From NCBI GenBank assembly GCA_037131105.1, contig JBAXRQ010000001.1:130039-194038 (forward strand): a stretch of 64,000 bases of DNA, given 5' to 3'. The notes beneath the pieces are model-generated. The model was not told the origin of the DNA. It made no database searches and worked only from the letters and a program-made list of their open reading frames with translations. Below are positions 1-19,551 of this stretch, piece by piece (the stretch's first letter is position 1; each line of letters opens with the position of its first letter). This DNA is from a bacterium. Its GTDB lineage: Bacteria > Patescibacteriota > UBA1384 > CAILIB01. The position numbers and the translations under genes were made by a program.

Positions 1-321
1 CGTCATGTTGGTCACTTGTAGATAGCGGGTATCAAAGTGAAGGGTGGCACTAATGGCGTTGATAGCCCTTTTTCCAGTCTTTACATGCAGCTCGAGAGGA
101 AATGCGGTGCCTACATTTGCTTGGCTGGGCATGACAAAATAAAAGCCGGCTTCGCCGCTCGGCGTGAAGGAGGCGGGTAGTGAGAGGATGGTTGGTGTGG
201 CAAGTATCCCGATGATGGCCAGAGTCACCCAAAAGAGTAGGCGCCTGCGTCTTCCCCAGGAACGATAAGCTAGGAGAAAAGTCCGGTACCCGTTGCGGAG
301 ACTGGTGAGTAGAGCCCTCAT
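1..321 (-). CDS. Partial CDS (N-terminal part only; the gene continues past the window start). Hypothetical membrane protein.
   Basis: The minus-strand ATG at 321..319 opens a frame that runs to position 1 with no stop: MRALLTSLRNGYRTFLLAYRSWGRRRRLLFWVTLAIIGILATPTIL... It has a hydrophobic N-terminal helix. It starts 2 nt after the stop of the upstream gene. It is missing from the ORF track only because it runs off the edge. Confidence 0.4.
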   Translation of the reverse strand, partial: MRALLTSLRNGYRTFLLAYRSWGRRRRLLFWVTLAIIGILATPTILSLPASFTPSGEAGFYFVMPSQANVGTAFPLELHVKTGKRAINAISATLHFDTRYLQVTNMT

Positions 322-322
322 A

Positions 323-1582
323 TTAGCGTGTGAAGTAGAACATCATAATAGAGAAGTCGACGAGGTTGACTCTGGTGTCACTGTTGATATCGGCGACACG
401 GTGGTTGGTCTGCCAGTGGAATAGTAGTATTGAGAAGTCGACCAGGTTGGTCCTTCCATCGCAGTTAAGGTCTCCGTGTGAGATGTCGCAGGCGGGAGGG
501 GGGTTGTCCGATGTCTGATTAGTAACGACAGTGAAGCTCAGGGTGTTACTGGCGATGCTTTGGTTTCCACCGCTGTCCTGGGCACTGGCATACAAACGGT
601 ACTCCCCAGCCTGGTAGGTAGCTGTCTCAACCGATGAGAGGGTATAGGACCAGTCACCCTGGCCGTTGCTGCTAGTGGAATAGCTGCGCAGAGGTGACTC
701 GGTAAAGATATTGATCTGCGAGTTAGGCTTGGCGGCTCCTGAGACTTTAAGAGTGTCGCCTGGCTGTATCTGGCTCTTATCCAGCTCTAAGGTAGGGGAG
801 AGGAGGATGCCGTTGACTGTGGTAACAGTCCCCCCAACCAGGTCTAACTGAAGGGTGGCTTGGGCCGTGGTTCGGTTTGCAGTATCGCTACCGGCTATGG
901 CGAACGTATGTGTGCCGGGACTTAATCCGGTAATGGAGAACAGAAAGGATCCGGCTATGTCAGCGGCAGCAGTGCCGATGACAGTACCATTCTCGGTGAG
1001 ATTGACGAAGGTACCAGGTGAGGTGAAACCGGTGAAGCTTACGGCGCTGAGTGGGGACTTGAACGTGGCTGACACCTGCACATAGCCCCCTCCTTGGGTG
1101 GGGATGACCGTGGACTGGTTACGGATCGTCAGTCCACTGGAGCTGTCGGAAACCGAGATGATGACACTAGTATCGGCGCCGTCCAGAGGGTTCTGGGCTG
1201 TCATACCTGAGATCTCAATGCTGGTACCGGGAAGGAGAGCCAGGTTTGTGATCTTGGCTCTGTTTCCCTCCACTTGGAAGGTCGGGGTGCCAAAGCCTCC
1301 TGTCACGCTGGAGGCGGGTGTGACATTGGTGTAATTGATGAAGGTTATGATGATCCAGTCACTGGGGGTGATCTGCTGCGAGCTGATAGGGAGCGTGAAG
1401 TCTACTGTGTGGCTCACACCAACGCGGTTGACTATGTTGCTGCTGATCAGGTCCTTAGGATAGTCGAGTGTGCCTACGGCGTGGGTGGGCTGCGTTGGCA
1501 GCATCATCAAAACAAGGGCAAGCGAAATGATCGTGCCCGAGAAACGACGTAGATAAGAAAAAGGACCCCTCCTTTGCGCCAC
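323..1582 (-). CDS. Secreted surface protein with a C-terminal dockerin-type (duplicated Ca-binding) module.
   Basis: N-terminal signal peptide (…LALVLMMLPTQPTHA). The C-terminus carries two tandem dockerin-like repeats, DLNCDGRTNLVDFSILL and DINSDTRVNLVDFSIMM, which fit the DxNxDGxVNxxDxxxL pattern. The middle is Ser/Thr/Gly-rich and probably beta-sandwich. Confidence 0.6.
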   Translation of the reverse strand: MAQRRGPFSYLRRFSGTIISLALVLMMLPTQPTHAVGTLDYPKDLISSNIVNRVGVSHTVDFTLPISSQQITPSDWIIITFINYTNVTPASSVTGGFGTPTFQVEGNRAKITNLALLPGTSIEISGMTAQNPLDGADTSVIISVSDSSSGLTIRNQSTVIPTQGGGYVQVSATFKSPLSAVSFTGFTSPGTFVNLTENGTVIGTAAADIAGSFLFSITGLSPGTHTFAIAGSDTANRTTAQATLQLDLVGGTVTTVNGILLSPTLELDKSQIQPGDTLKVSGAAKPNSQINIFTESPLRSYSTSSNGQGDWSYTLSSVETATYQAGEYRLYASAQDSGGNQSIASNTLSFTVVTNQTSDNPPPACDISHGDLNCDGRTNLVDFSILLFHWQTNHRVADINSDTRVNLVDFSIMMFYFTR

Positions 1583-1583
1583 C

Positions 1584-2588
1584 TCAATCCCTCGTGAGGT
1601 TGTTGATTATTCGTCGAACCTTCTTGCGCTGGGTAATCAGTAGAAGTAGGACTACTATGACTCCAAGACATATCCAGACAAGTAGAAGCGGGAAGATGAT
1701 GAAGCTGGTGGTGGCGGTCAGAGGTACCTTTGACTGACCATAGTTAGCGACAAGAGTAGCAGTGTACTTGCCGACGTAGCCGCTGTCTTCCCAAATAGTG
1801 TTTACTGAACGACTACCGCCTGGAAGGGCGTTTGCCTCAGTAAGAGGAAGCTCTTTGACCTTGCGACCGAAGATATCGGTAATGACAATGGTTCCAGAGG
1901 GAGCCACGTGCACGTTACCAGTATTGGTGGACCTTAGATTGAAGGCAATGGGACCATGCTGATAATAGGAGTCGTCAGTTTTGAAAGAATCGAGGCTGAG
2001 CTGTTCAGTAATATTTCCTGAGACACGTAGCAGGATCAAGCTGTTTAGCTGGGTGATTACCGAGGCACCACCACCGACGACTGCATCACCGGCAAGGCGG
2101 ACCTGTACTGATGCGTAGTGTCCTCCGGGCTCACCTGACTTAGGAATGCGGATACTGATGTTGATAACCTTCTGCTGGCCGGCGGGTACGGTAAAGCTGC
2201 TAGGCTCAACAGTCATCCACTTTGCTAGGGAATAGGTCGTCTTAGGAGCTTTGGGGTCTTCCACAAGGTCGATACCTCCCTGGTCCCCAGCTGCTTTAAA
2301 GTCCTCAACCTTGGTCTGATAGGTCGCATCGCTTGAACCGCTGTTGGTGACTTTTAGATTCTCATTGACCGTGTCACCTGGGTTTCCGAACAGTTCAAAC
2401 TTAGGCGGGCTGACCGTCAGGGTGTCTGCATGTGCGATACCCACTGATAGTGGTGCAACGAGCAGTAGGGTGCTGAATAGTAGGGAAACGACGACTCCCA
2501 AGCGGGTAGTGTTCATGGCGGTAAGTGCGGGGTGTGTGGTAGTACGAAACTTTATCTGCTCTATTATCAACAGATTTTTTAACGACAT
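1584..2588 (-). CDS. Cell-surface protein with an N-terminal signal peptide and a C-terminal transmembrane anchor plus a basic tail.
   Basis: N-terminal hydrophobic signal (…VVVSLLFSTLLLVAPLSVGIAHA). C-terminal TM helix FPLLLVWICLGVIVVLLLLI followed by TQRKKVRR. This architecture resembles the DUF916/DUF3324 (CscA-like) proteins of Firmicutes WxL loci. That resemblance rests on architecture only, not on an alignment. Confidence 0.5.
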   Translation of the reverse strand: MSLKNLLIIEQIKFRTTTHPALTAMNTTRLGVVVSLLFSTLLLVAPLSVGIAHADTLTVSPPKFELFGNPGDTVNENLKVTNSGSSDATYQTKVEDFKAAGDQGGIDLVEDPKAPKTTYSLAKWMTVEPSSFTVPAGQQKVINISIRIPKSGEPGGHYASVQVRLAGDAVVGGGASVITQLNSLILLRVSGNITEQLSLDSFKTDDSYYQHGPIAFNLRSTNTGNVHVAPSGTIVITDIFGRKVKELPLTEANALPGGSRSVNTIWEDSGYVGKYTATLVANYGQSKVPLTATTSFIIFPLLLVWICLGVIVVLLLLITQRKKVRRIINNLTRD

Positions 2589-2635
2589 GCAAGTCGCTTT
2601 AGCTTTTCTGAGCCAATTACTGGCATCCTACCTTC

Positions 2636-3445
2636 TTATGGTTTGATCTTCTGGTAGTCGATATGTACCGTGCCTAAATGAAATATTCCGCTGTCATTAG
2701 AATGGTTTGGAAGTTTGATCATCCATTCAATTTGACCTTTTGCAGACGGCTGGACGTTAGAAAGATCGAACTGCTTGCTAAAGCTGTGCCAGCCGTTCTC
2801 TATGCGCTGACGGGGCGAGCTGGTAATGAGGAGGCTTACGCCATTGAGCGAGGTTAGGCTCTCTAGAGGGACATAGCTACCGTCCTTAAGCCCTAGATCG
2901 CGGGCAATGATAGTATCTGCTGCCAACGTAGATGCAGAAGGATGCGAGGCTAATGCTGATTTGAGGTCTTGGAATTCCGGATTTCGCTGGAAGAACTGGT
3001 ATTGGCCGGTAATGGTATCTGTCCAGTTGAGATCTTTTAGGAGAGGGTGGGAGACAAGGGCTAAATCATGGTAACCGTTTGGCAACTTTACTTCTAAGTA
3101 CGCAACCTCGCTCCCATCTCCACGGTATTGGAAATTTACCAACGTTTCCTTGCGATACTCTTGAGATCCACTGGTGAAATAAGCAAGTCCCGTGGTGACG
3201 TCTTGATGAGGGACGCCTGCCAGCTGCTTTTCATTCTCAGTAGTTGGCCCTGAGAAGTGATTTGTGGTCTTGGGGCAGCCAAATACATGATTGCGCAAGT
3301 ATGAGCACGGCTGGGGAACCCATGCTGAGATGACCAGCACTAGGAGGAATGCACCGCCTATTCCAACCGTAAGCTTGTCCTTAGTAGAGCGCGTCCACTT
3401 CATAGATGATCTTACCGCTATAGGTGTCTGCTGGCTGCACTGCAT
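2636..3445 (-). CDS. Membrane protein anchored at the N-terminus (signal-anchor) with an extracellular domain. The true start is probably the internal Met near 3403.
   Basis: The longest ORF overlaps the upstream gene by 65 nt. The internal start MKWTRSTKDKLTVGIGGAFLLVLVISAWV gives a single N-terminal TM helix. The rest of the protein is hydrophilic. Confidence 0.45.
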   Translation of the reverse strand: MQCSQQTPIAVRSSMKWTRSTKDKLTVGIGGAFLLVLVISAWVPQPCSYLRNHVFGCPKTTNHFSGPTTENEKQLAGVPHQDVTTGLAYFTSGSQEYRKETLVNFQYRGDGSEVAYLEVKLPNGYHDLALVSHPLLKDLNWTDTITGQYQFFQRNPEFQDLKSALASHPSASTLAADTIIARDLGLKDGSYVPLESLTSLNGVSLLITSSPRQRIENGWHSFSKQFDLSNVQPSAKGQIEWMIKLPNHSNDSGIFHLGTVHIDYQKIKP

Positions 3446-4472
3446 TTATACCAAAAGCGTAGGATACGTAAATAGTCACTTCTGTTCGATCAGCAGTAGT
3501 AGAAGTGGCCACAGCATGTTTAGTAGTTGAAATCGGGCCGAACTTTGCACTTGCACTAGACCAGCCACTTACCCGGGTGTCACTGGTATTTGCTGCAATC
3601 CAACCGCTATTACTGTTGGCACTGGTTCCTGAGGGGGTGGCCCAGTTCTGGGGAGTGGACCAGGTGGCGTCGACGGCTCCGAAAGGGCTTATCTGGTTGT
3701 CAGGGTTTGAGCCGCTAATTGGTTCATTTAGATACGCATAGACCGTATAGCCACGCGGGGCATTGGTTGTGATCTGTAGTTTGTGGGCAGCGTACTGCAC
3801 GTTTCCTGGCGACATATTTCCGAAAGGGAATTCGGTACCCGATCCTGCAACGGTCGTCGTTACTCCGTTATGTGTCTGGCTGACCGGTACGCTGGATATT
3901 TGAAAGCTGAAGGAAGGATCCTCGGTAATGACATAGGTAGTCTCACCGCTGTCGATGTGCGTGTGGCTATCATCTGAAAATGTCGTGATAGCTACATAGC
4001 AGGTGTCACTTAGATTGATGGTACCTGAGTTACAGTCAGCTATGTGCGGATTGGTGATGTTCTGCAAGTCAACTGAAGCACTCGAAGAAGCGGTAACTTC
4101 AGCCGGAGTGTCGCGCCCAATGTAAATAAGTCCGTCACCGGCACTAGCGGTATTCAGGCTCCAGCCACTTCCTAGTCCACTGACTGTGCCTAGGGTTGCG
4201 CTTGAAAGGCTGAGGTGGGACGGCTTTGTGGTGCCGGCTGACACCGTGGAGAACTGGAAGGCGACACGCTGAATATCGCTGGTGGTGGCTGTGGTGAAGG
4301 TGATGACATGGTGTACGCCGGTCGCAGCGGCCTGGTAATCGCTCAGTGTATCGGCTTGGCTGGTCACACTTCCTGCAAAAGCAGTTTGTATCCCAAAAGT
4401 CGTTACGAGAGCAATGATTGTTACTAGTCGAGCGGCTCTAATACATAAGGAGTGCAGGGTATTCATACCCAT
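3381..4472 (-). CDS. Secreted Thr/Ser/Asn-rich beta-rich surface protein, paralog A.
   Basis: Signal peptide (…TFGIQTAFAGS). It shares several blocks with the next gene: TLSDYQAAATGV vs TLSDVTSNQTSV; SDTCYVAITTFSDDSHT vs SETCWVRITTYASDNST; FPFGN…GYTVYAY vs IPFGN…GYTVYNKF. Both share the C-terminal motif Y-[ST]-G-x3-Y-x-V-x-A-x-Y. Confidence 0.6.
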   Translation of the reverse strand: MGMNTLHSLCIRAARLVTIIALVTTFGIQTAFAGSVTSQADTLSDYQAAATGVHHVITFTTATTSDIQRVAFQFSTVSAGTTKPSHLSLSSATLGTVSGLGSGWSLNTASAGDGLIYIGRDTPAEVTASSSASVDLQNITNPHIADCNSGTINLSDTCYVAITTFSDDSHTHIDSGETTYVITEDPSFSFQISSVPVSQTHNGVTTTVAGSGTEFPFGNMSPGNVQYAAHKLQITTNAPRGYTVYAYLNEPISGSNPDNQISPFGAVDATWSTPQNWATPSGTSANSNSGWIAANTSDTRVSGWSSASAKFGPISTTKHAVATSTTADRTEVTIYVSYAFGINAVQPADTYSGKIIYEVDALY

Positions 4473-4543
4473 TAGTATACAGCATTAGAGTACAAAAGAA
4501 CGCCCCCGAAGGGGCGTCCGTTTGCTCTGAGACCGATCCTAGG

Positions 4544-5794
4544 TTAGTAGGAAGCGACGACGTTGTAAACTGTGGTACCAGTGTACTGGTCGGAAGGCTC
4601 GAAGGCGTTAGACTGTACCTTGAAGCTTACGTAGGTAGCGACGGTACCGTTGTCAGGACTGGTGGCAATCATGACCTTCTTACCGATGCTAGAACCGACG
4701 TATGGTGGTGCCCAGACGTTAGCGGAGCTGAAGCCGCTTACGTTGGCATTGCTGCTGCGAATACCGAGCCAAGCCGTATCAACGTTCCTGGTGGTACCGT
4801 CAGGACCGTTAGGATAGGTTCCAGCGCTCCAAACAGCTGATGCATTTGATCCGCCATCTTCAGCCCAACCGGTTCCAACGGTTCCTCCATCGAAGGGATC
4901 GATGTTGTTGGCCGAGTAGGTACCGACCATCAGGTCTGTAGCTGGGGCCGAACCATTGAACTTATTGTAAACGGTGTAACCGTTGTTCGCGTTAGTCAGA
5001 ACTTTTAGGTCCTGAGTGGCAACCTTGGCTGATCCCAGGGCTACGTTTCCGAAAGGAATGGTAGTAGCGGTGGTGGTGACCGAAGTGGCGCCAGCATTGG
5101 CGTCAGACGTGGTTCCGCTGTTCACACCAGCAACCGTGAAGGTAAGAACTGGATCGATGGTGGCTGTCACCGTGATGGTGTTGATAACCGTGTAGGTGGC
5201 AGTACCGTTGTCGACAACAGTTGAGTTGTCAGATGCGTAGGTGGTAATACGTACCCAGCAGGTCTCCGAGTTGGTAACGGAGTCACAAGGGGTGCTAGCC
5301 GAAACGGTGTTGCTGTGGACGTTCGCTGTAGCGAAGCTCAGGACAGGGCTTCCTGAAAGCGTGCCGGTGTCGGTGGTAGCCGTGTAGATAAGAGTACCGG
5401 TGGTAGTCTTATCGAGGGTCCAGTTGCTTGTGTCGCCAGTACCGCCGATGGTAACTGCTGACTTGGTAGCGGAACCGTTGGCGAAGTTATCAGGAACAGT
5501 AGCATCGGTGGATGCGTTCTGGCGGAAGTCGAACTTCACTCTGCCAAGCGGGGTGGTGGAACCTGGCTTGAAGGCGATGGTATAGGTAACAGAAGTCTGG
5601 TTCGAAGTAACGTCTGAAAGAGTAACAGTTGAAGTGTTCAACTGTCCGGCAGCCTGGGCGATACCTGCCATACCAAGGCCAGTCATGGCCAGGGTAGTGG
5701 AAAGCATCAAGGCCCCACTTACTACTTTACGTAAGGATGCAGTCATAAATCCCTCATTTAAACTGATGATGTAATAAAAATGTTGAAGCCACAC
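4544..5794 (-). CDS. Secreted Thr/Ser/Asn-rich beta-rich surface protein, paralog B. It may be an abundant surface or S-layer-like protein.
   Basis: Signal peptide (…MTGLGMAGIAQAAG). It has a GAGG ribosome-binding site upstream, one of the few clear ones in the window. It is paralogous to 3381..4472. Its C-terminus is …AWLGIRS…YTGTTVYNVVASY. Confidence 0.6.
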   Translation of the reverse strand: MWLQHFYYIISLNEGFMTASLRKVVSGALMLSTTLAMTGLGMAGIAQAAGQLNTSTVTLSDVTSNQTSVTYTIAFKPGSTTPLGRVKFDFRQNASTDATVPDNFANGSATKSAVTIGGTGDTSNWTLDKTTTGTLIYTATTDTGTLSGSPVLSFATANVHSNTVSASTPCDSVTNSETCWVRITTYASDNSTVVDNGTATYTVINTITVTATIDPVLTFTVAGVNSGTTSDANAGATSVTTTATTIPFGNVALGSAKVATQDLKVLTNANNGYTVYNKFNGSAPATDLMVGTYSANNIDPFDGGTVGTGWAEDGGSNASAVWSAGTYPNGPDGTTRNVDTAWLGIRSSNANVSGFSSANVWAPPYVGSSIGKKVMIATSPDNGTVATYVSFKVQSNAFEPSDQYTGTTVYNVVASY

Positions 5795-5883: not shown

Positions 5884-6168
5884 TTAGGCGGATGGCTTGT
5901 CAACTATTTTTGGGGCAGCTCCAACCAGGATAGTGACTATGTCATTTTTAATGCGAAGAATACCGCTTTCTATAGCCATGTTCTCTTCTTTTTCAGAGTG
6001 GACCTGTAATTCACCTTTACCTAGTTCAGCGAACATAGGAGTGTGGCCAGGTAGTAGTCCGAGCATGGTTTCTTTGCCTGGCGCCAGGATATAGTCAGCC
6101 GTTCCTTCGAAGAGGATCTCGTCCGGGTTGATGATTTTTACGGTCAACTTTGGTTTTTCGTCAGCCAT
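5884..6168 (-). CDS. atpC: F-type ATP synthase epsilon subunit (short form without the C-terminal helical hairpin).
   Basis: A 94-aa beta-sandwich-type epsilon (…ILAPGKETMLGLLPGHTPMFAEL…). It lies immediately downstream of atpD. Confidence 0.85.
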   Translation of the reverse strand: MADEKPKLTVKIINPDEILFEGTADYILAPGKETMLGLLPGHTPMFAELGKGELQVHSEKEENMAIESGILRIKNDIVTILVGAAPKIVDKPSA

Positions 6169-6275: not shown

Positions 6276-7688
<1,413 letters not shown>

Positions 7689-7747: not shown

Positions 7748-8194
7748 CTAATAATACTTCCAGTTTCCTTGAGCAAGGTAGTTCATATATCCTGGGCTAC
7801 AGCTCGTAGTGGTTTTCCATTGAAATACGTCAGTCTTTACGCTGTAGCGAGTGCACCTCTGACTAAGGTCGAGCGCTCTGGTTAGCGTGTGAATGATGTT
7901 CGTAACAAAAAATATGCCAATGATAAGAAATCCTAGTGCGATCACTAGTCTTTCGGCCTTAAAAGCCAGGCGTCGGAAAAGCTGGATGAGTACGTACCCG
8001 TAGATCAGGGAGGCTCCGATTGAGTACATCGCGACAACTATCTGAAAACCGACCGTTGTGCCGTCAGAAAACGCCATTATCAGGATGAGGAAGACAAGAC
8101 TAGGAATAGCAGCCACGATGCTGAGTGGAAGAGGAGATGCGGCGCACTGAAAACGTGTCTTGAGGGGTTGGGTTGTTGGATTTGAGAGAGTCAT
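7748..8194 (-). CDS. Small polytopic membrane protein of unknown function, inserted inside the atp locus.
   Basis: Three to four predicted hydrophobic helices. No recognisable motif. Confidence 0.4.
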   Translation of the reverse strand: MTLSNPTTQPLKTRFQCAASPLPLSIVAAIPSLVFLILIMAFSDGTTVGFQIVVAMYSIGASLIYGYVLIQLFRRLAFKAERLVIALGFLIIGIFFVTNIIHTLTRALDLSQRCTRYSVKTDVFQWKTTTSCSPGYMNYLAQGNWKYY

Positions 8195-8214
8195 ACCTTT
8201 GAAGGTTCAGTGGG

Positions 8215-8784
8215 CTATTGTTTTTTGTGCTCTCCCAGATACTTTGAAACGGCCACCGAGAAGTTGGCCAGGAAAATGTAGAAAGGATAGGCTAGGAGGA
8301 TGGGGTCGAGCTCGCCAACCGAGATGATGGCCAGGATTCCGGCCAATGACACGATCAACCACATGGGATAGGTCTCCGTCGAGGGGTCCTCGTAGGTCTT
8401 CATTACCGTAAGGCTGGCGGCGATGGCGTCGATACCCATGGTGATGAGCAGGGCGAAGACGGCTTCCTTGGTGAAATACCAGATGACCAGGCCGATGCCT
8501 GCGGCAATGAGGGCATTAAGGTCCCGTCTGACCAGGCCGCCCGCGCCGTATTTGAGGGAGAGTAGGAAGACCAGTAGCGCTCCCAGGCCGTCCAGTGCAC
8601 TAAACCAGAGTGAGCTAGTGGCGCCTTCTGACAATTGGGCGAAGAAGGCGATACCCACCAATATGCTCCAAATGAGCCAGGAGGCGCGCTCGGGCTTGGC
8701 CTTTTTGTGGAGGATATCAAGAATATAGGGATAATAGCTCCCGGCCGCCAATACTCCTGCGATAAGTCCGATTACTTCAAGCAT
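8215..8784 (-). CDS. Polytopic membrane protein of unknown function, inserted inside the atp locus.
   Basis: About 6 hydrophobic segments. It is not an ATP synthase a subunit: there is no conserved Arg-containing LRLFGN-type helix. Confidence 0.45.
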   Translation of the reverse strand: MLEVIGLIAGVLAAGSYYPYILDILHKKAKPERASWLIWSILVGIAFFAQLSEGATSSLWFSALDGLGALLVFLLSLKYGAGGLVRRDLNALIAAGIGLVIWYFTKEAVFALLITMGIDAIAASLTVMKTYEDPSTETYPMWLIVSLAGILAIISVGELDPILLAYPFYIFLANFSVAVSKYLGEHKKQ

Positions 8785-8808
8785 GGGCTTACTATAGCGG
8801 TATGTGGG

Positions 8809-9354
8809 TTATATTTCGACTCTGAATACTTCGGCATTGACTGCTTCGGTGATCTCTCCTGGAGAGTAAAGGGATTTGGCTGCCTCAAGTATGCCTCCGT
8901 GGGTGGTGATCAGTACGGTTTTGCCAGAGTGCTCGTTCTTGGCGAAATCAATGAACCCCCGTACCCGTACCCTCACATCCTCGGCAGATTCTCCCCCGAA
9001 CGCCCGGTAGTCGTAGGCGGAAGAGGTGTCTTTTATGCGGATGTCGGGATCACCGGTCTCGGCGGCGATCTCGTCCCAGGTCATGCCTCCAAGCCTGCCG
9101 TAGCTCAGCTCCTTCAGGTCGTCTCGCGTCGAGATGGGCAGCCCGAGATTTCCATTAAGTATCTCGGCAGTCTGTAGGGCCCGCTTCATGGGGGAGGATA
9201 GTATCTCATCAATGCCGGCCGGCAGTGCCTGGGCGGCAGCTTGAACTTGGGCGATGCCGACTTCGTTCAGTGGTCCGTCCACCTCCTGGCCATAAGCGAT
9301 CCCTTGCTTGTTGCCATCGGTCTGGCCATGTCTGATGAAGAGTAGGGCGGTCAT
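8809..9354 (-). CDS. Histidine phosphatase (phosphoglycerate mutase-like) family protein.
   Basis: N-terminal LFIRHGQTDGN (the RHG catalytic motif) and a downstream TTHGG second-His motif. Confidence 0.8.
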   Translation of the reverse strand: MTALLFIRHGQTDGNKQGIAYGQEVDGPLNEVGIAQVQAAAQALPAGIDEILSSPMKRALQTAEILNGNLGLPISTRDDLKELSYGRLGGMTWDEIAAETGDPDIRIKDTSSAYDYRAFGGESAEDVRVRVRGFIDFAKNEHSGKTVLITTHGGILEAAKSLYSPGEITEAVNAEVFRVEI

Positions 9355-9488: not shown

Positions 9489-10418
9489 TTACCATAGGGC
9501 ACTTCCCGCAAACACTTCCCCGATCTTCTTATCAATCATCTTCCGCCGTGCCTTGTTGTATTCCATCCTGAGATCACCAAGCAGGGCGTTGGCATTGTCT
9601 GAGGCGGTCTTCATGCCGATCATCTGGGAGCTGTTTTGGGCCAGGCGGGCGTCCATGATCTGCTGCTGGAACAGAGCGTTTCGCAGGGTCTTGCTCACTC
9701 CTTCGATAAGCTGGTCGATGTGGGGTTCGTACAGGTAGCGTCCTTCTTTTACCGGTTCTTCTTTTTTACCCTCTTTTCCATTCTCGGCTTGCTCCTTGGT
9801 CTCCTCGACCTTTGCGTCCTTCTTGGTATCGGTCGCGACCGAAACGGCTAGGGGCGCTACTACCGAAAGGACCACCACTTCGCGGGTGGCGGTATTGATA
9901 AAGCGGGAGTAAGCGAGGGTCACCTGGTCATAGTAGTCGAAGCTGCTGGTCAGGCGACTAAGGTCTTCGACGCCGAAGGTATCCGGTACGGTGTAGGGGT
10001 AGACTTTCAGCTCCTTAAACTTGTGGCCCTGGAAGTATTCCTGGCCTTTTTTACCGACTATGAAGAAGTCGGCATCCTTCTGCTCTACGAGCAGCTTCTC
10101 AACCTTCTGGTAGATCTCGATGTTGTAGCGTCCGGTTAGACCCTGGTTTGAGGTGACGATAATGACGGCGCGGCGGTCGACGCCTCCAGAGGGCTTGCGC
10201 TTTTTCAGCTTGGTCATATCCTCTGACTGCATGGCGTTGCGCTGGGACATGAGCTCTTGCAACAGATCAGAGGCCGTCTCAACGAAGGGGCGGCTTTTCA
10301 TCACCTGGGTACGCAGGCGCATCATGCGCTGGGTGGCGATTTGCTGGAGGGCGTTGGTGAACTCACCCACCGAACCTACCACGATCATCTGTTCCTTGGT
10401 TTCGTTGAGGGTAGGCAT
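9489..10418 (-). CDS. atpG: F-type ATP synthase gamma subunit.
   Basis: Length and position (immediately downstream of atpA) fit. The C-terminal helix …MIDKKIGEVFAGSALW is typical of gamma. Confidence 0.85.
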   Translation of the reverse strand: MPTLNETKEQMIVVGSVGEFTNALQQIATQRMMRLRTQVMKSRPFVETASDLLQELMSQRNAMQSEDMTKLKKRKPSGGVDRRAVIIVTSNQGLTGRYNIEIYQKVEKLLVEQKDADFFIVGKKGQEYFQGHKFKELKVYPYTVPDTFGVEDLSRLTSSFDYYDQVTLAYSRFINTATREVVVLSVVAPLAVSVATDTKKDAKVEETKEQAENGKEGKKEEPVKEGRYLYEPHIDQLIEGVSKTLRNALFQQQIMDARLAQNSSQMIGMKTASDNANALLGDLRMEYNKARRKMIDKKIGEVFAGSALW

Positions 10419-10421
10419 GGC

Positions 10422-12506
10422 CTAGGCTTTGGGTTCTTCCTTCTTCTCTTCCGTGGCCGGTGTCTCGGCAGCGGGTTCCGCCGGTTTGGCGGCTTCTTCA
10501 GCAGGCTTTTTGACGGGAGCTTCCTCTGTGGGGGTCGGCTCGGCAGCGGGCTCCGGAGCCGGCTCAGGTTTGACTTCTACAGCAGGTGGCTCTTCCTTTT
10601 TCTCCTCTACTGGTTCTGCTGGTTTCGACTCTTCAGTCGGAGGGGGCTCTGTTTTGGCGTCCTCAGGCTTTGTCTCGGCAGCCGGCTCTTCTTTCTTCTC
10701 TTCTGCGACAGGCGCCTCTGCGACTGGCTCGGCAGGCTTGGTCTCCTCCTTCTTTTCCTCGGCGGGCGCCTCCCCTTCCTTAGGTGCTTCTGTCTTGGCG
10801 TCCTCAGGCTTTGTCTCACCTTCGGCCGGCTTCTTTTCGCCTTCTGCGGGGGCTGCTCCTGGCTGGCTGGGGTCGGGGACTATGGGCATTGGCTTCTCCT
10901 CGGCCGGCTTCTCACCGATCAGCCATTTGGCACCTATCACGGGGGACTGGGCCACGTAGTCCTGGACAATCTTCATGATCAGGGGTTCCAGCACCGCAAT
11001 GTCCTTCTCGACCGGGGCCTTTTCCTTGAACTCAGGGTAAGAGCCCTTGCGGTAGAACTCGACGAGCTCGACCTTGATCTTGCGTACGTCCACCACTTCG
11101 ATGTTGTCAGCTTTGCCGGCGGTGATGATGTAGAGAAGTAATATCTTTTCGTCATTACTCATATTGAACCGGTAGTCCTGGGCCAGGGTCTCCAGGATGC
11201 GCTTGCCACGCTTGATCTCACGCTCGGTGTCCTCACTGATTTCAGTGTTTAGGGTCTCGAAGGACTTCACTTCCTGGTAGCGGGCCATTTGTGTGGAAGC
11301 CAGCTCGCCGACTTTTCGTAGGCAGGGGGGTTGTACGCTACCACCGATACGTGACACCGAGGCCCCAGAGTTTACGGCCGGGAAGATGCCTTCATGCATC
11401 AGATTCAGGTCAAGGTAGATATGGCCGTCGGTGATCGACATCAGGTTGGTGACGATGTACTCAGAGAGGTCGCCGTTCTGGGTCTCAGCCATGGGGAAGC
11501 CGGTAAGCGAGCCTCCCTTAAGATCTTCAGATAGTCGGGCAGTACGCTCCAACAGTCGGGAGTGCAGGTAGAAGATGTCGCCGGGATAGGCGTCGCGGCC
11601 AGGGGAGCGCTTCAGGAGCAGTGACATCTGGCGGTAGGCCTTGGCATGCTTGGAAAGGTCGTCGTAGATGATCAGGGCGTCCTGGCCCCCGTACATGAAG
11701 TACTCGCCGATGGCGCAGCCTGCATAGGGCGCGATGTAGTTCAGGGAAGGTGGATCGTCCGAGCTGCCAACTACCATGCAGGTGTATTCCATGGCGCCAC
11801 CGGCACGGAGCAGCTCCTCCAGCTCGCGGACCTTGGCCTTCTGGGCGCCGACTGCGACGTAGATACAGGTGATACCGCGGCCTTTCTGGTTCAGGATAAG
11901 GCTGGCAATGAGGCGGGTCTTGCCTGACTTTCTATCTCCGATGATTAGCTCGCGCTGTCCTTTGCCTATGGGAATGGTGGCGTCCACTACCAATATGCCG
12001 GTCTCAAGCTGGTTTACCACCGGTTGGCGTTTGGCGACTCCAGGAGCTAACCGTTCTACTTGCTGATAGGTCGAACTACGGATGGCACCGCGGCCGTCGA
12101 TGGGGATACCCATAGGGTTCACTACCCGTCCGAGCAGCTGCTCGCCGGACTGGATCCTCAGTACTGATCCGGTGGACCTCACCACGTTTCCCTGGCGGAT
12201 TTTTAAGTATTCTCCTAATACCACTGCCTCGATAAGGGTGGTGCTAATACCGAGAATAAGGGCTTGGGTGATACTTTCGCCAGTATCGATGTCCACCACT
12301 TCCTCGATACGGGCCGAGGGTAGTCCCTTGATCTTTACCACTCCGTCACCGACGTAGACCACCTCGCCGATCTCGGTGACCACCGGCTTCATGCGGGTGT
12401 CCGGCAACGACTCGGCCAACTGTTGGGCGAGCTGCTTGACGGTGGAAGATTCGGGCGGAGTCTGGGTCTTTGGCATGAAGGCTATTGTTTGGACATTTGC
12501 TTCCAA
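10422..12506 (-). CDS. atpA: F-type ATP synthase alpha subunit with a roughly 180-aa low-complexity Pro/Ala/Glu/Lys-rich C-terminal extension.
   Basis: Walker A GDRKSGKT plus the alpha-type N-terminal beta-barrel and C-terminal helical domain (about 515 aa). The same frame then continues through …KPAEEKPMPIVPDPSQPGAAPAEGEKKPAEGETKPEDAKTEAPKEGEAPAEEKKEE…EEKKEEPKA until the stop at 10422. Confidence 0.9.
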   Translation of the reverse strand: MEANVQTIAFMPKTQTPPESSTVKQLAQQLAESLPDTRMKPVVTEIGEVVYVGDGVVKIKGLPSARIEEVVDIDTGESITQALILGISTTLIEAVVLGEYLKIRQGNVVRSTGSVLRIQSGEQLLGRVVNPMGIPIDGRGAIRSSTYQQVERLAPGVAKRQPVVNQLETGILVVDATIPIGKGQRELIIGDRKSGKTRLIASLILNQKGRGITCIYVAVGAQKAKVRELEELLRAGGAMEYTCMVVGSSDDPPSLNYIAPYAGCAIGEYFMYGGQDALIIYDDLSKHAKAYRQMSLLLKRSPGRDAYPGDIFYLHSRLLERTARLSEDLKGGSLTGFPMAETQNGDLSEYIVTNLMSITDGHIYLDLNLMHEGIFPAVNSGASVSRIGGSVQPPCLRKVGELASTQMARYQEVKSFETLNTEISEDTEREIKRGKRILETLAQDYRFNMSNDEKILLLYIITAGKADNIEVVDVRKIKVELVEFYRKGSYPEFKEKAPVEKDIAVLEPLIMKIVQDYVAQSPVIGAKWLIGEKPAEEKPMPIVPDPSQPGAAPAEGEKKPAEGETKPEDAKTEAPKEGEAPAEEKKEETKPAEPVAEAPVAEEKKEEPAAETKPEDAKTEPPPTEESKPAEPVEEKKEEPPAVEVKPEPAPEPAAEPTPTEEAPVKKPAEEAAKPAEPAAETPATEEKKEEPKA

Positions 12507-13027
12507 TCGGAGCGGAACTGGGTGAAGCGAGTGCGCAGGCTGTAGTCGGTGATGTAGTTTCCGTAGCGGACGATGACACCGCCGATAAGAGTAGGGTCGA
12601 CGGTCACTTCAAGGGCCACAGGACGGCCCAGCTGGGTGGAGAGGGTGGAGACCATTTGGTGTAGGTCCTTATCCTTGAACTCTATGGCCACAGTGATCTT
12701 AATAACTCTGATGGCCTCGGCCCGTCGCTGCATGGCGTGGAGAAAGTCTGGAAAATGCTTGCTGTCGAAGAACTCCAGGTCACCGGAATCAAGGATTTCC
12801 AGCAGCTTCATACGTAGTTCCTCTGACTGCACCTGCTCCATTACCTTTTTGACGTACCCTACCTTTTCCCTGAGCGTCTTAGGGGTCTGCTCCAGCATCA
12901 GTTCCATCTCACCCTGGTTGACAGTCTCAAGCAGGGAAACTAGGGACAGGTGAAGCTTGTCTATCTGGTCTGCCAAATAGAACTTCTGCAATACTTGGTT
13001 GGCGGCCAGACTGTAATCGAGGCTCAT
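12482..13027 (-). CDS. atpH: F-type ATP synthase delta (OSCP) subunit.
   Basis: 181 aa, helical, and sits between atpF and atpA. The C-terminal …LIGGVIVRYGNYITDYSLRTRF resembles OSCP. Confidence 0.75.
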   Translation of the reverse strand: MSLDYSLAANQVLQKFYLADQIDKLHLSLVSLLETVNQGEMELMLEQTPKTLREKVGYVKKVMEQVQSEELRMKLLEILDSGDLEFFDSKHFPDFLHAMQRRAEAIRVIKITVAIEFKDKDLHQMVSTLSTQLGRPVALEVTVDPTLIGGVIVRYGNYITDYSLRTRFTQFRSDWKQMSKQ

Positions 13028-13566
13028 GCCGGGTTCTTAGTGTCGTCACTTTCAGCCTTCAATTCCTTGAGCGCTTCCATAACCAGGGTCTTTTGTCCGG
13101 CGTAGCCGATGCCGCTCGGTAATACCTTCTTAGCTACCGAAAGAACTAGGTTCATAAGGTCGTCTTCTACTTCGCGCTGGCGGGACTTCATATATTCCTC
13201 TGCCTTGGCCTTGGCTTCCTCCTCAAACTTCTTGGACTTGGTCTTGGCGGCGGCAAGTGCCTTCTTGCTCTGCTCGGTAAGTGCAGCGATCTTGTCCTCG
13301 TATTCCTTCCTGATGTCGGCGATCTCTTTGTCGGAGTCGGTATCGGCTGCCTTGACCTGTTTCTCGACCTCTTTCAGTTTGGCCTCACTCTCCTCGGTGA
13401 GCTTTTTAAGAGTCTCCTCGTGGGCAGTTTTAAGAGCGGCTACCTCGGCAGCAGCCTTCTTTTCTGCCTTGTGCCTTCGGGACGTAAACAAGAGCTCAAC
13501 CAGGGAGATGAGAAAGACCGAGAGAGTGATGCTGGCGCCGATGGCGAAGAGGAACAGCTCGCGCAT
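13024..13566 (-). CDS. atpF: F-type ATP synthase b subunit.
   Basis: An N-terminal TM helix is followed by a long charged Ala/Lys/Glu coiled coil. It overlaps atpH by 4 nt. Confidence 0.7.
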   Translation of the reverse strand: MRELFLFAIGASITLSVFLISLVELLFTSRRHKAEKKAAAEVAALKTAHEETLKKLTEESEAKLKEVEKQVKAADTDSDKEIADIRKEYEDKIAALTEQSKKALAAAKTKSKKFEEEAKAKAEEYMKSRQREVEDDLMNLVLSVAKKVLPSGIGYAGQKTLVMEALKELKAESDDTKNPA

Positions 13567-13578
13567 AGAAGTGGTGGG

Positions 13579-15660
<2,082 letters not shown>

Positions 15661-15738: not shown

Positions 15739-17187
15739 TTATTCGTAGCGTAATGCCTCAACCGGGTTCATCCTAGCTGCGCGTACTGCTGGCCAGTAGC
15801 CTGCCAACATGCCGACGATGGTGGTAGTGGCAATGGTTACCATGATTAGCCATGGCTGTATGCCTAGCACGCTCAACGGGATTCCCTGTGAGGAGAGTTG
15901 GCTGCCGGCAAAGTGACTGACTGCTAAGGAGGCGGCATAGGCAATCGCACAGCCGAATAGTCCGCCCCAGAAGCCTAGTAGGGCGGCCTCAAAGGTGAAG
16001 AGACGTCGCACTGCGGCTCGGGTAGCTCCGCAGGCTCGCATGACGCCGATTTCGCGGGTGCGCTCTAAGGTGGCCATGATCATAGTATTGATCACGCCAA
16101 TGGCGGCTACGAAGAGGGAGATGCCGCCAATGGCTCCGAAGACGATGCTGATCATCTTGAAGATCTGCATGATCTGGTCAATCATTTCTTGAGCGGTAGC
16201 AGCCCCGAGCCCCATTTTCTTTACTGCCGCTGCGACGCCGGCCACATTTTCTACGCTATCTACCTTTAGTACGAGCGAAGAGTAGCCTTGCTGATCGAAC
16301 TGACTCATCGAAGTCAGCGTGTACTCAGGTGCGGGCTGTGAGCACTGTCCCATGGTCTTGCCGCAGTCGACCGGTGCTTGTTCCTTCTGTTGCCACTGCC
16401 ACTGGGTCATCAGCTTCTTGGCGTAGCTCAGGGGAATGAAGTCCTCACGGTCATAGACGCCTGCCGCCAGGACGCCGACCACCGTGATGGTCTGGTGACC
16501 TTGATGGTTCTTAATGGTGTTGTAATAGTCTTCATTGGCCTGCTTGCTATTGTTCTGACCGGGGTCCTGGGTAGGAGGAAGGGGAACATTCTTGTCATCA
16601 CCTACGTACCCTTGGGTGGTGAAGTTCAGGGTCTGGCCAACAGCGGCTGCAGCCTGGTCCTTGGCGTATCCCATCTTGATAAGGGTTTCCTGACTGATTA
16701 GGATGCTATTGTCGTCGTCCGGCGTAAGGTTTCTTCCGGCTACGATGGGACGTTCGGTCAGTGGGCTGGGCTGGTAAGCGATGGTATCGCTATTGGAGAG
16801 GTTGAGCTTTTTGCCGCTGGCGTCGGTGATGGAGGATTGCTTCATAACCCAAGCGCTGAGCTGGGCGTAGCCACCGCTAACGTGGGGGATGGCGTTTACC
16901 TTGGTCAGTATGGCATCGGTAAGCTTTGCGGTATCGCCACCACCACCAGAATTGCCGCTGAATACGCTGTCAGAGCTGATGTCGGTATTTCCACTGACGG
17001 CGACCTGGGTTAGGGCGCCAGCGCTTTCAATTTGGCTGATGGCAGCGTCTTTGGCACCGAAGATGATAGTAAGCATCAGAACTACGGATGTAGCCCCGAT
17101 CATGACTGCGATAATGGTCAGGATGGTCCGGGCCTTCTGACGCCAGATGTTTTTTAAGCCGAAGCGAATGTAGTCTATGAATTTCAT
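15739..17187 (-). CDS. ABC transporter permease of the FtsX/MacB family with a large extracytoplasmic domain.
   Basis: N-terminal TM helix, then a roughly 250-aa periplasmic domain, then a C-terminal three-TM FtsX-like module ending …MNPVEALRYE. It overlaps the ATPase gene by 4 nt. Confidence 0.75.
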   Translation of the reverse strand: MKFIDYIRFGLKNIWRQKARTILTIIAVMIGATSVVLMLTIIFGAKDAAISQIESAGALTQVAVSGNTDISSDSVFSGNSGGGGDTAKLTDAILTKVNAIPHVSGGYAQLSAWVMKQSSITDASGKKLNLSNSDTIAYQPSPLTERPIVAGRNLTPDDDNSILISQETLIKMGYAKDQAAAAVGQTLNFTTQGYVGDDKNVPLPPTQDPGQNNSKQANEDYYNTIKNHQGHQTITVVGVLAAGVYDREDFIPLSYAKKLMTQWQWQQKEQAPVDCGKTMGQCSQPAPEYTLTSMSQFDQQGYSSLVLKVDSVENVAGVAAAVKKMGLGAATAQEMIDQIMQIFKMISIVFGAIGGISLFVAAIGVINTMIMATLERTREIGVMRACGATRAAVRRLFTFEAALLGFWGGLFGCAIAYAASLAVSHFAGSQLSSQGIPLSVLGIQPWLIMVTIATTTIVGMLAGYWPAVRAARMNPVEALRYE

Positions 17188-17888
17188 CGTGATTCTCTTA
17201 CTTTGCCGTCTTGGATGGAGATGACCCGGCTGGCCTGCTTGGCGATATTCGGGTCGTGGGTAATCACAATGAGGGTGATGCCCTGTTTGTTGAGTCCTTT
17301 GAGAAGCTGCATGATCTCATCCCCCTTTTGAGAGTCGAGGTTTCCGGTAGGCTCGTCGGCGATGATGATGCTGGTCTGGTTGGACAATGCCCGGGCGATA
17401 GCCACGCGTTGGCGCTGGCCTCCGGAAAGCTGGTTAGGATAATGTCTCAGCCGATCGGCCAGGCCCACTGCCTCTAGACACTCTTTGGCTCGTTGGGTGC
17501 GGGCCTTGCTACCGGTCTTGGCCAGGACCAGGGGAAGCATGACGTTTTCCAGGGCGTTGTAGCTGGCCTGCAGGTTGAAGGACTGGAAGACGAATCCGAT
17601 ATGTTTGTTCCGGTAGAAGGAGAGCTTCTTGTCGCCGACTTTGGAGAGGTCCTCACCGTCAATCTGAACAGTGCCCTCGTTGGGGGTGTCCAGGCCGCCG
17701 ATGATGTTGGCCAGGGTAGACTTACCCGAGCCAGAAGGTCCGACGATAGCCAGGAACTCACCGCTTTTGACCTCGAGATTCACTTTATCCAGGGCGTTCA
17801 CCACCTCGTCACCTAGTTTATAGGTGCGGCTAACGCCCTTTAACTCAATGATGGCTGTATCCATGGGAAGGCTACTAATTTGTACCAC
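17184..17888 (-). CDS. ABC transporter ATP-binding protein (MacB/LolD-like).
   Basis: Walker [10 protein letters not shown], the ABC signature [15 protein letters not shown], and Walker B IIIADEPT. Confidence 0.9.
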
Positions 17889-18411: not shown

Positions 18412-19551
18412 TTAGGAGTAGTTCTTGCCGGGATTGGTCATCAGAATATCGTGGGGATGACTTTCGGTGAGTGAGGCGGCGGTAATCTGGACGAAACGGG
18501 CGTTCGCTACAAGCGTTGGCAGGTCCTTGGCGCCTACGTAGTACATGCCTGAGCGGATGCCCCCGATGGCCTGGTCGATCTGCGACTTCAGACTCCCCTT
18601 GCAGGGGATGAGGCCTTCGACTCCCTCAGCCACTAGTACCGCATCGTTCTTATAGGTCTTACCGTGGAATTCACTTTCGGACTTGATGGCGGCCCCCTTT
18701 TCCATGGCGGCAATAGAGCCCATGCCCCGGTACTGCTTGAAAGCGTACTGTATGGTGTCAGGATCGATGATGCTCTGGAAGCGGCTGGGCACCTGATCTT
18801 TCTCCAACATGACCAGCTCACCGGGCGACTCGTCTACAGCGGCGAAGAACGAACCCATCATCAGGCTAGAAGCCCCGAGAGCCAAGGCTTTAGCCATGTC
18901 GCCGGAAAGTTTCAGGCCGCCGTCAGCAATGACCGGCACGTCACCGTGCTCCTTGGCGGCTCGGATAGTTTCTTGTAGGGCAGTGACCTGAGGTACTCCC
19001 ATGCCTGAGATGACCCTAGTGCTGCAGATGGAGCCGGGCCCCATGCCTACCCTCAGGGCGTCGGCCCCGGCCTCAAGCAGGGCGACAGCCGCTTCGTAGG
19101 TGGCGATACTCCCGGCGATGACCTGGAGCTTCGGGTGGTCCTTTTTGATCTTTTTAATGGTGTCGATGGTGAACTGGGTGTGCCCGTGGGCGCTGTCCAG
19201 CACAATGGCTTCGACGCCAGCAGCCAGCAGGGCTTCCAGACGGGGCTCGTAGCCAGGGCTGGATCCCACAGCGGCTGCGGCCAGGACTCCTGCCTTCTTT
19301 ACTGCTTTCACCTCGGCGGCCTGCTGGTCAACGGTGAGATTGCGGTGGATGACGCCGCCGCCACCCAGATGCCCCAGGGCGATGGCCATGCCGGACTCGG
19401 TCACCGTATCCATGGGGGAGGAGATGAAGGGGATTTCCAGGGAAATGTCCCGGGTCAGGCGGGTGGAGAGATCTATGTCGTCGCGCTGGAAATCAGTGTA
19501 GCCGGGGAGTAGGAGGATGTCGTCGAAGGTGAGGGCCTGGGGATAACTCAT
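18412..19551 (-). CDS. guaB: IMP dehydrogenase / GMP reductase family protein without a CBS subdomain.
   Basis: N-terminal [14 protein letters not shown] and the catalytic-loop motif [11 protein letters not shown]. At 379 aa it is too short to carry the CBS pair. Confidence 0.8.

Follow-up and report, generated by a model that had tools for sequence, protein, structure and literature searches.

Genes downstream of atpC

The window analysed here is a stretch of 64,000 nucleotides (nt) of contig JBAXRQ010000001.1 (assembly GCA_037131105.1), from a bacterium of the Candidate Phyla Radiation (CPR, Patescibacteria) whose nearest relatives are Candidatus Berkelbacteria. On the minus strand, 3' of the ATP synthase gene atpC, the list of open reading frames (ORFs) contains six co-directional genes, here called A to F, the last of which is truncated by the edge of the window (Table 1). 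Each of the six products carries a signal peptide or a membrane anchor. A and B are pilin-like paralogs, C is an orphan membrane protein, D is a chaperone candidate, E ends in a dockerin and F resembles a cohesin.

The anchors were judged with a Kyte-Doolittle scan and the signal-peptide-like N-termini of A, B and E by eye; those of A and E lie below the transmembrane (TM) threshold of the scan. The initial annotation, made from the DNA letters, had described a row of six co-directional genes all with signal peptides or anchors, among them two paralogs with common motifs, a DUF916/CscA-like protein with a C-terminal TM helix and a basic tail, a protein with an N-terminal signal-anchor and a protein with a duplicated dockerin repeat. 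The gene row was borne out by the ORFs together with the hydrophobicity scan and inspection, and the descriptions of the single proteins held as well, as detailed in the next section.

The distances between the genes are 137 nt for atpC-A, 77 nt for A-B, 119 nt for C-D and 1 nt for both D-E and E-F, and B and C overlap by 23 nt. The ORF of A reaches back to a GTG at 5794; the gene callers (L001 and L002) use the ATG at 5746, which gives a protein of 400 amino acids (aa). The ORF of D reaches 2588 (334 aa), and the NCBI call is 310 aa long. When the region between atpC and A was scanned for promoters, no convincing one was found. The hairpin between A and B has a 9-bp stem with 7 GC pairs, a TTCG loop and the tail TTTTGT, and it may be an attenuator, with the probable effect that more of A is made than of the products encoded further downstream.

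The same genes are present on a 283-kb ENA contig (L001), which matches E exactly and in which the row extends past the edge of the window. There F is complete and is followed by four further genes of the operon, G to J, and the row ends before a glycosyltransferase gene on the opposite strand.

Table 1 Positions of the genes and features described in the text (in the window unless contig L001 is named)
Feature	Position	Strand	Evidence or remark
F, first 107 of 195 aa	1-321, ATG at 321	(-)	Divergent cohesin, below Pfam threshold
F complete, 195 aa	L001 11262-11849		
G (395 aa), H (382 aa), I (345 aa), J (176 aa), further operon genes	L001 11849-15812		Beyond left window edge
E, 419 aa; signal peptide, N-terminal domain, two Ig-like domains, C-terminal dockerin	323-1582	(-)	Pfam
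E dockerin, type-I-like	335-478	(-)	
D, 310 aa; two-domain WxLIP/PapD-like chaperone candidate	1584-2516	(-)	Pfam, PDB profile, Foldseek
D C-terminal TM helix	1632-1688	(-)	
D DUF916 domain	2100-2399	(-)	
C, 255 aa; N-terminal anchor and ~200-aa domain	2636-3403	(-)	Orphan family
Pilin-like B, 361 aa; signal peptide, nine-strand N-domain, linker strand, C-domain	3381-4466	(-)	NF058581, AF2
B C-domain	3384-3839	(-)	AF2/NF058581
B linker strand	3891-3911	(-)	AF2
Hairpin and T-run, terminator-like, GC-rich, between A and B	4498-4519	(-)	Sequence read
Pilin-like A, 400 aa; signal peptide, N-domain, linker, C-domain	4544-5746	(-)	Full-length paralog of B
atpC, short F1 epsilon subunit, 94 aa, beta-sandwich domain only	5884-6168	(-)	Pfam ATP-synt_DE_N 1.2e-17
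atpD	6276-7682	(-)	5' of atpC, precedes the gene row
148-aa membrane protein	7748-8194	(-)	
189-aa multi-pass membrane protein	8215-8784	(-)	
His_Phos_1 phosphatase	8809-9354	(-)	
atpG	9489-10418		
atpA, 694 aa	10422-12506	(-)	
Delta subunit	12482-13027		OSCP 2e-15
b-like protein	13024-13566		
689-aa ORF at the atpE position	13579-15648	(-)	
c-subunit part of the 689-aa ORF	13579-13780		PF00137 38 bits, model 1-60 of 60
MacB/FtsX permease	15739-17187		Upstream of the c-subunit fusion
ABC ATPase	17184-17888		Upstream of the c-subunit fusion
IMPDH	18412-19551		Upstream of the c-subunit fusion

The encoded proteins and their conservation

Thin fibres of Ca. Mycosynbacter amalyticus have been resolved by cryo-electron microscopy (cryo-EM) and consist of two paralogous pilins, PamA and PamB (Troman et al., bioRxiv 10.64898/2026.03.03.709456). 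According to this preprint, nine strands form the N-domain of each pilin, a linker strand comes next, and the linker strand of the neighbouring subunit fills a truncated immunoglobulin (Ig)-like C-domain, and the linker and the C-domain are the most conserved parts of Pam pilins. The accessory proteins described there are PamC and PamD, FimC/PapD-like chaperones with a C-terminal TM helix; PamT, a tip protein that has the C-domain only; PamR, with two fibronectin type III (FnIII) domains, a TM segment and an N-terminal strand; and PamE, a further accessory protein. In many CPR genomes the pam operon adjoins the ATP synthase genes. The preprint is silent on WxL, DUF916 and cohesin-dockerin.

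Proteins A and B could be aligned from end to end with 31% identity (E = 8e-38). PFGN and GYTVY are common to both, the C-terminal ends that carry the shared motif are YTGTTVYNVVASY and YSGKIIYEVDALY, and A has a conserved Cys pair at 154/163. A Pfam scan of the two proteins gave no match. The sole family match of B was the NCBIfam model NF058581 (CPR_Pam_pilin_C, "Pam pilus system pilin subunit"), which aligned residues 212-361 to model positions 3-146 of 148 with E = 1.1e-4 and 22.3 bits; the curated cutoff of this model is 55 bits. It was also the sole recurrent match in the family, being found in 11 of 34 homologs and in 27 of 70 more distant representatives (best 2.4e-9), always on the C-terminal domain and always below the cutoff. 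Several large relatives from other CPR loci matched the model too, the best of them, from L013, with 35 bits. Judged by these profile scores, the relation of the A/B family to the Pam pilin model is statistically real, yet it lies outside the curated boundary.

The first search with B yielded 59 homologs, and an AlphaFold2 (AF2) model of B, built from a 34-sequence alignment, had a pLDDT of 93.6. In this model nine strands lie within residues 37-183, a single strand at 188-194 comes after a near-invariant D185-P186, and the C-domain occupies 225-361. When the model was compared with the text of the preprint, the layout was that published for PamA/PamB. We consider A and B most likely to be distant Pam-type pilins.

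An exhaustive search of the representative library with the pilin family profile gave 2255 clusters (50% identity) at E ≤ 1e-3 and 270 at E ≤ 1e-30. Many of the matching CPR proteins are 500-1100 aa long and have only profile positions ~170-361, that is, the linker and the C-domain, in common, which fits the claim of the preprint that these are the conserved polymerisation elements. We also noticed that the linker and C-domain can stand at the C-terminus of unrelated large N-terminal regions (P0254-P0340; L010 11123-12886, L013 8156-10537 and L024 8960-11803). One such relative contains beta-propeller repeats, and two of the 70 scanned members matched the NCBIfam model TafC, a haloarchaeal Tat-fimbriae subunit, at 4.8e-17.

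Searches of the PDB with the single sequences of A, B and D found nothing, and the pilin profile gave only noise against a PDB set that does not contain the PamA/PamB entries 25PZ and 25QA. A query with the pilin from a Saccharibacteria-labelled locus recovered no named Mycosynbacter protein. We also asked whether the pilin C-domain could be a WxL domain, and this was rejected on sequence: no Pfam WxL match at E ≤ 1 was found in 34 family members, and an Enterococcus WxL protein aligned to the pilin profile with an hhalign probability of 0.1%. A near-invariant Trp does occur in a W-[ST]-L motif of the family, the only W-x-L motif seen (GSGWSL in B, residues 102-107, window 4151-4168; SNWTL in A); it is probably a coincidence, since the motif sits in the N-domain and not in a C-terminal domain of the WxL type.

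Protein D is a genuine homolog of DUF916/WxLIP. It scored above threshold with the Pfam models WxLIP_PGBD (PF06030, DUF916; 30.4 bits, cutoff 27.3) and fn3_5 (32.3 bits), and when its family profile was searched against the PDB, the WxLIP of Enterococcus faecium (9i25_C, 9i1y_A; EfmWxLIP1) was found at E = 5e-7. A plasmid-borne E. faecium WxLIP aligned to the D profile with an hhalign probability of 94.6%. The protein begins with a signal peptide and has a TM helix at residues 301-319 of the 334-aa ORF (Kyte-Doolittle 3.2), followed by the basic tail QRKKVRR. Its AF2 model (pLDDT 85) shows two beta-sandwiches and ends in a helix at 277-308; a loop at ~141-156 is modelled with low confidence. 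With this model Foldseek placed WxLIP at the top (4e-12), next to it the chaperones CfaA, CsuC, FimC and Caf1M (1e-10 to 1e-8), and further down DraB and RbmA. The alignment to 9i1y covers 241-261 columns and both domains; the Pfam model DUF3324 did not match D at E ≤ 1. At least 250 homologs were found, whose source names include "Fn3-like", "P pilus assembly chaperone PapD", "DUF916" and "WxL protein peptidoglycan domain". Conservation within the family is highest along ASV..R.GSLILLRVSG, which starts inside the ~141-156 loop and runs on just past it. In WxLIP, the hairpin that corresponds to this stretch is predicted to provide the strand that completes the WxL sandwich (PMC10599100). The architecture of D coincides with that of the Pam chaperones PamC and PamD.

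Protein C has a hydrophobic anchor at residues 11-29 in the Kyte-Doolittle scan and a conserved Cys pair, C33 and C43, just outside the membrane. Syntenic orthologs are present in the related loci L004, L005, L006 and L025, and the family is confined to the closest relatives. No Pfam, NCBIfam or PDB match was obtained for it, and hhalign found no link to the pilins or to D.

In protein E, residues 369-416 matched Pfam Dockerin_1 (PF00404) with 25.2 bits, the gathering score being 22.9. The repeats are DLNCDGRTNLVD and DINSDTRVNLVD, and both calcium loops are invariant in three homologs. Upstream of the dockerin, two Ig-like domains were recognised by Pfam (Big_13, 4.5e-10; Big_6, 4.4e-8). Between the mature N-termini of E and of the pilins there is a weak resemblance, with an hhalign E-value of 6e-5 to 9e-5 when the signal peptide is included. 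An identity of this N-terminal domain with the pilin N-domain was rejected, as without the signal peptide the values were E = 1.3e-3 and a probability of 18%, and the resemblance is a weak lead only.

The initial annotation had proposed that a cohesin might accompany the dockerin, and the candidate partner is adjacent, since cohesin-like domains are encoded immediately downstream of E, in F, G and J. These three have a common domain of ~130 aa with a conserved Cys pair, and F and G are paralogs (E = 8e-12). At the level of the family, Pfam Cohesin matched 8 of 10 members (best E 2.4e-7), and the matches of the family profile in the PDB were almost all cohesins, the best being ScaB (3l8q, 1.2e-4); the NanJ cohesin (2vo8) was aligned over its full length. 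F and J are anchored by N-terminal helices, which in F spans residues 28-46 (Kyte-Doolittle) and is followed by the divergent cohesin domain. In G, a signal peptide is followed by the cohesin-like domain and a Pro/Thr-rich linker; a TM helix then leads to a cytoplasmic tail which, judged by eye, resembles a coiled coil. J is the third anchored cohesin-like protein of the operon. It seems likely that F, G and J act as membrane receptors of E.

Two other genes of the extended row are of different type. H has a cytoplasmic coiled-coil-like region, a TM helix and a conserved extracellular domain of ~200 aa without known relatives; its C-domain gave no match in the PDB, and homologs of H lie alongside the pilin genes in L005-L010 and L013. 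I crosses the membrane several times and has a CHASE4 sensor domain; an output domain is absent.

To see how the genes are arranged elsewhere, the GTDB species genomes were scanned, which yielded 22 loci, and the genes were mapped in them by tblastn and blastp. The closest loci are those of Candidatus Berkelbacteria metagenome-assembled genomes (MAGs), at 48-49% identity; the others are labelled CPR2, Microgenomates, Beckwithbacteria, Saccharibacteria and Patescibacteria. The order atpD-atpC-pilin is kept in the window as well as in L004-L014, L018 and L021, the order atpD-atpC-pilin-pilin is found in nearly all loci, and orthologs of A adjoin atpC in other CPR loci. L005 and L006 have the full order A-B-C-D-E-F-G-H, preceded in L005 by atpD-atpC, and the shorter contigs L004 and L025 have the same order over the parts that they cover. 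In L008, L009, L010 and L013, which are CPR2-type, Saccharibacteria-labelled or related loci, some or all homologs of D-H lie at a distance of up to 10 kb with the order or the strand altered. Homologs of E, F, G and H were located within 10 kb of the pilin genes in L005, L006, L009 and L010, in varied order; near the pilins of the Microgenomates-type loci L011, L014, L015 and L018 they were not detected, and homologs of D were likewise not detected by mapping in the Microgenomates-type loci. The initial annotation had proposed to look at the conservation of the cluster in relatives, and because the same gene order recurs in independent CPR genomes, it is not a chance arrangement.

The number of pilin genes varies among close relatives, as a Berkelbacteria MAG (L004 2783-6326) has three of them in a row, two tandem A-type copies and then B. 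In addition, we noticed a CPR-type atp-pilin locus in MAGs labelled Pseudomonadales, Gammaproteobacteria or Verrucomicrobiae (L010, L014, L017-L020, L022 and L024; P0006). These labels are probably taxonomic mis-assignments.

Relation to Pam pili and other surface systems

We think it quite likely that the locus is a distant, compact variant of the Pam pilus operon of CPR bacteria. It has the architecture and the genomic context of such an operon, and its pilins score below the curated sequence cutoff. The features computed here are, for the pilins, the domain layout and the homology of the C-domain to the Pam model; for D, a WxLIP/PapD-like fold and a TM anchor; and, beyond these, the dockerin, the domains resembling cohesins and the conserved synteny with atpD-atpC. 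As in the Pam system, a paralogous pair of Sec-exported two-domain pilins with a conserved linker and C-domain module is encoded together with a PapD/FimC-like chaperone held by a C-terminal TM helix, usher, sortase and ATPase are absent, the operon borders on the ATP synthase genes and the host belongs to the CPR. There are also differences: the pilin C-domain reaches 22 bits, where the Pam system has PamC, PamD and PamR, this locus has a single chaperone-like gene, nothing resembling PamT or PamE was recognised, the orphan membrane protein C is additional, and a dockerin protein with three membrane-anchored cohesin-like proteins is unmentioned in the preprint. The host here is Berkelbacteria-like, whereas Pam hosts are Saccharimonadia or Microgenomatia.

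Several points weigh against this assignment. No member of the A/B family, B included, attains the 55 bits that NF058581 demands, and A did not match that model at E ≤ 1. C belongs to an orphan family, and the F and G of this genome score 13.7 and 18.2 bits with Pfam Cohesin, below its cutoff of 24.1. Counterparts of PamT, PamR and PamE were not recognised in the operon by gene architecture; neither a gene for the C-domain only nor a second TM-anchored two-domain gene is present in it, in the window or on L001. The likeness to PamA-T of M. amalyticus was judged from the description in the preprint and from NF058581. Filament formation, strand exchange and the binding of E to F, G or J are what we infer from these likenesses, as are the function of the hairpin as an attenuator and whatever part C may play.

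On the Pam-type reading, assembly could proceed as follows. All products would be exported by Sec. Both A and B would have a beta-sandwich N-domain that a linker strand joins to a C-domain, the latter being an incomplete Ig fold in PamA/PamB. D, held in the cytoplasmic membrane by its C-terminal helix, would temporarily complete the pilin C-domain with a strand of its own, which the linker strand of the next pilin would then displace (donor-strand exchange), so that a thin linear fibre could grow from its base without usher, sortase or ATPase. The hairpin after A would make A more abundant than the products of the downstream genes, and A is our candidate for the major subunit. In a second module, secreted E, with its Ig-like domains and dockerin, would dock on the membrane-anchored F, G and J and either tether the base of the fibre or display an adhesin on the surface. 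In the latter case E may be an independent adhesin; that it serves specifically as the anchor of the fibre, a fibre-base adaptor on F, G or J, is a tentative suggestion that we would not favour over its opposite.

The initial annotation had compared the locus with the csc/WxL clusters of Firmicutes, and part of this comparison stands. Like the WxL/WxLIP (Csc) systems of Lactobacillales and Listeria (PMC10599100; 9i1y, 9i25), the locus combines one WxLIP-like gene with two paralogous secreted proteins; D has DUF916, two Ig-like domains and a C-terminal TM helix, and the predicted principle, a strand of the chaperone-like protein completing an incomplete sandwich, is the same. One could therefore imagine a non-filamentous surface complex in which D, a true WxLIP homolog, holds the secreted A and B by strand insertion without any polymerisation. 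We regard this as improbable. The paralogs are not WxL proteins: the Pfam WxL domain was detected in 0 of 34 family members, with the very low hhalign probability given above, the Pfam model DUF3324 did not match D, a search by regular expression gave no LPXTG partner, and the C-domain of A and B is related to pilins that form filaments by cryo-EM (Troman et al.). WxL proteins, moreover, are described as peptidoglycan-bound surface proteins and not as fibres (PMC10599100). More serious is the possibility that E and its partners form a cohesin-dockerin scaffold functionally independent of A and B, with E an adhesin on F, G or J and the adjacency a matter of mere co-expression. The dockerin and cohesin-like domains lie next to each other, in CPR2 and some further loci the E/F/G/H homologs are separated from the pilins or encoded on the opposite strand, and near the pilins of L011, L014, L015 and L018 none were detected. 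In the window genome, however, E, F and G are spaced by 1 nt or overlap by 1 nt and D and E are 1 nt apart, E/F/G lie within 10 kb of pilins in four lineage groups, and the mature N-terminus of E is weakly like that of the pilins, so that we hold such independence to be possible but rather doubtful.

The S-layer that the initial annotation had named as a possibility found no support. A and B, both secreted and probably abundant, have a high content of Thr, Ser and Gly and consist of beta-sandwich domains, as lattice proteins of an S-layer or cell envelope might be; no SLH or other S-layer family match was found, however, their sole family match is the C-domain of a pilin and the operon has a dedicated chaperone-like gene, which makes this explanation very unlikely. 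Sortase-assembled Gram-positive pili and type IV pili are effectively excluded by sequence, as A and B end in ...ASY and ...ALY without LPXTG or a C-terminal sorting signal and the cluster contains no sortase, prepilin-type signal or assembly ATPase; a regular expression found no LPXTG motif in proteins A to J, and Pfam no sortase in the cluster. Chaperone-usher pili (Pap, Fim, CFA/I, Csu, Caf1) were considered too. The fold of D matches CfaA, CsuC, FimC and Caf1M, the Foldseek matches of pilin B include a CfaE-CfaB fusion and the tip adhesin CupB6 with TM-scores of ~0.3, and the logic of donor-strand complementation and exchange that we infer here is theirs. In contrast to these pili, there is no outer membrane here, the chaperone is anchored in the membrane, the pilins have two domains, and the strand donated in Pam is, according to the preprint, an internal linker instead of an N-terminal extension. 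Membership in this class was rejected, as no usher-like gene was found in the cluster of the window or on L001.

For the dockerin module, the nearest comparison is with non-cellulosomal cohesin-dockerin pairs such as NanJ/NagJ of Clostridium perfringens and the cohesin of Archaeoglobus, which have the same duplicated calcium-loop dockerin at the C-terminus and cohesin sandwiches of similar size (~130 aa). Unlike the NanJ/NagJ-type pairs, the proteins here have no catalytic or carbohydrate-binding modules, the cohesins are single domains anchored in the membrane directly by an N- or C-terminal helix, they contain the conserved Cys pair, and the sequences of the window genome are divergent and below the Pfam threshold.

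A novel cell-envelope assembly, as the initial annotation had put it, has largely been overtaken, since the locus, with pilins and a TM-anchored PapD-like chaperone beside the ATP synthase, fits the published pam operon; its further idea of an attachment system was right in general terms. It had set its view apart from one in which the paralogs belong to a pilin family, and the NF058581 match brings them close to one while staying below the curated cutoff. What appears to be new relative to the preprint is the WxLIP homology of the chaperone and the cohesin-dockerin module linked to the operon.

A broader reading joins these observations, and as a whole we judge it unlikely. In it, Pam pili and the WxL/WxLIP (Csc) clusters of Firmicutes may both have branched from a single ancient monoderm system, whose ancestral core may have been a membrane-anchored, strand-donating DUF916 chaperone together with strand-deficient beta-sandwich subunits. 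In the Berkelbacteria type, the fibre or a terminal subunit E may be tethered by a dockerin-cohesin pair instead of a PamR-like anchor. As a remote extension, the neighbouring ATP synthase might be coupled physically or functionally to the surface apparatus.

Attachment to host cells is the presumed way of life of CPR bacteria, and Pam pili are, to our knowledge, the first CPR-specific fibre of known structure. As a probable Pam variant, the locus would add a Berkelbacteria-like lineage to the range of this system, one in which two pilins and one chaperone make up a minimal gene set. It also ties the Pam chaperone to the DUF916/WxLIP family by sequence and fold, and because the biology of WxL clusters is still unclear, this tie offers an evolutionary and mechanistic bridge that can be tested. 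The membrane-anchored cohesin-dockerin module could explain how a fibre or adhesin is retained on a cell without an outer membrane. Additionally, thousands of "hypothetical" CPR proteins, in the 2255 clusters mentioned above, could provisionally be annotated as putative Pam-type pilins.

The neighbouring ATP synthase genes

The ATP synthase operon next to the gene row shows several peculiarities of its own. The position of atpE is taken by one ORF of 689 aa, in which an N-terminal signal or anchor and ~590 aa of Ig-like repeats (sub-threshold matches to Big_1 and Invasin_D3) are followed by a complete c-subunit hairpin. The same in-frame fusion was seen in L008 (548-2566) and L012 (39-2081), and cut copies in L013 (2-1168) and L005 (2-1498). 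It is our guess that this fusion is the "tail fibre-like protein" of the Pam preprint, located there beside pam operons.

A subunit a was not found in the 64-kb window when the motif R-[LFIVM]-x-[GA]-N was searched in six frames, and there was none among the neighbouring ORFs scanned with Pfam in the window and downstream on L001. The second helix of the c subunit is the usual site of the ion-binding carboxylate. In all eight c-subunit sequences (window; homologs in L005 and L008-L013) the second TM helix is without Asp or Glu, so the canonical carboxylate appears to be missing; the loop motif is nonetheless conserved. A search of the literature found nothing on the c-subunit fusion, the lost carboxylate or other oddities of the ATP synthase.

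The delta subunit and a b-like protein are present, and a permease of the MacB/FtsX type, an ABC ATPase and IMPDH are encoded upstream of the fusion. Three genes (7748-9354, minus strand) are inserted between atpG and atpD, and for two of their products, the membrane proteins of 189 and 148 aa, no family match was obtained. In the alpha subunit the nucleotide-binding and C-terminal domains end at residue 488, and the tail of ~200 aa that follows is acidic, of low complexity and rich in Pro, Glu, Lys and Ala. Long alpha subunits of ~540-800 aa are also encoded in several of the related loci.

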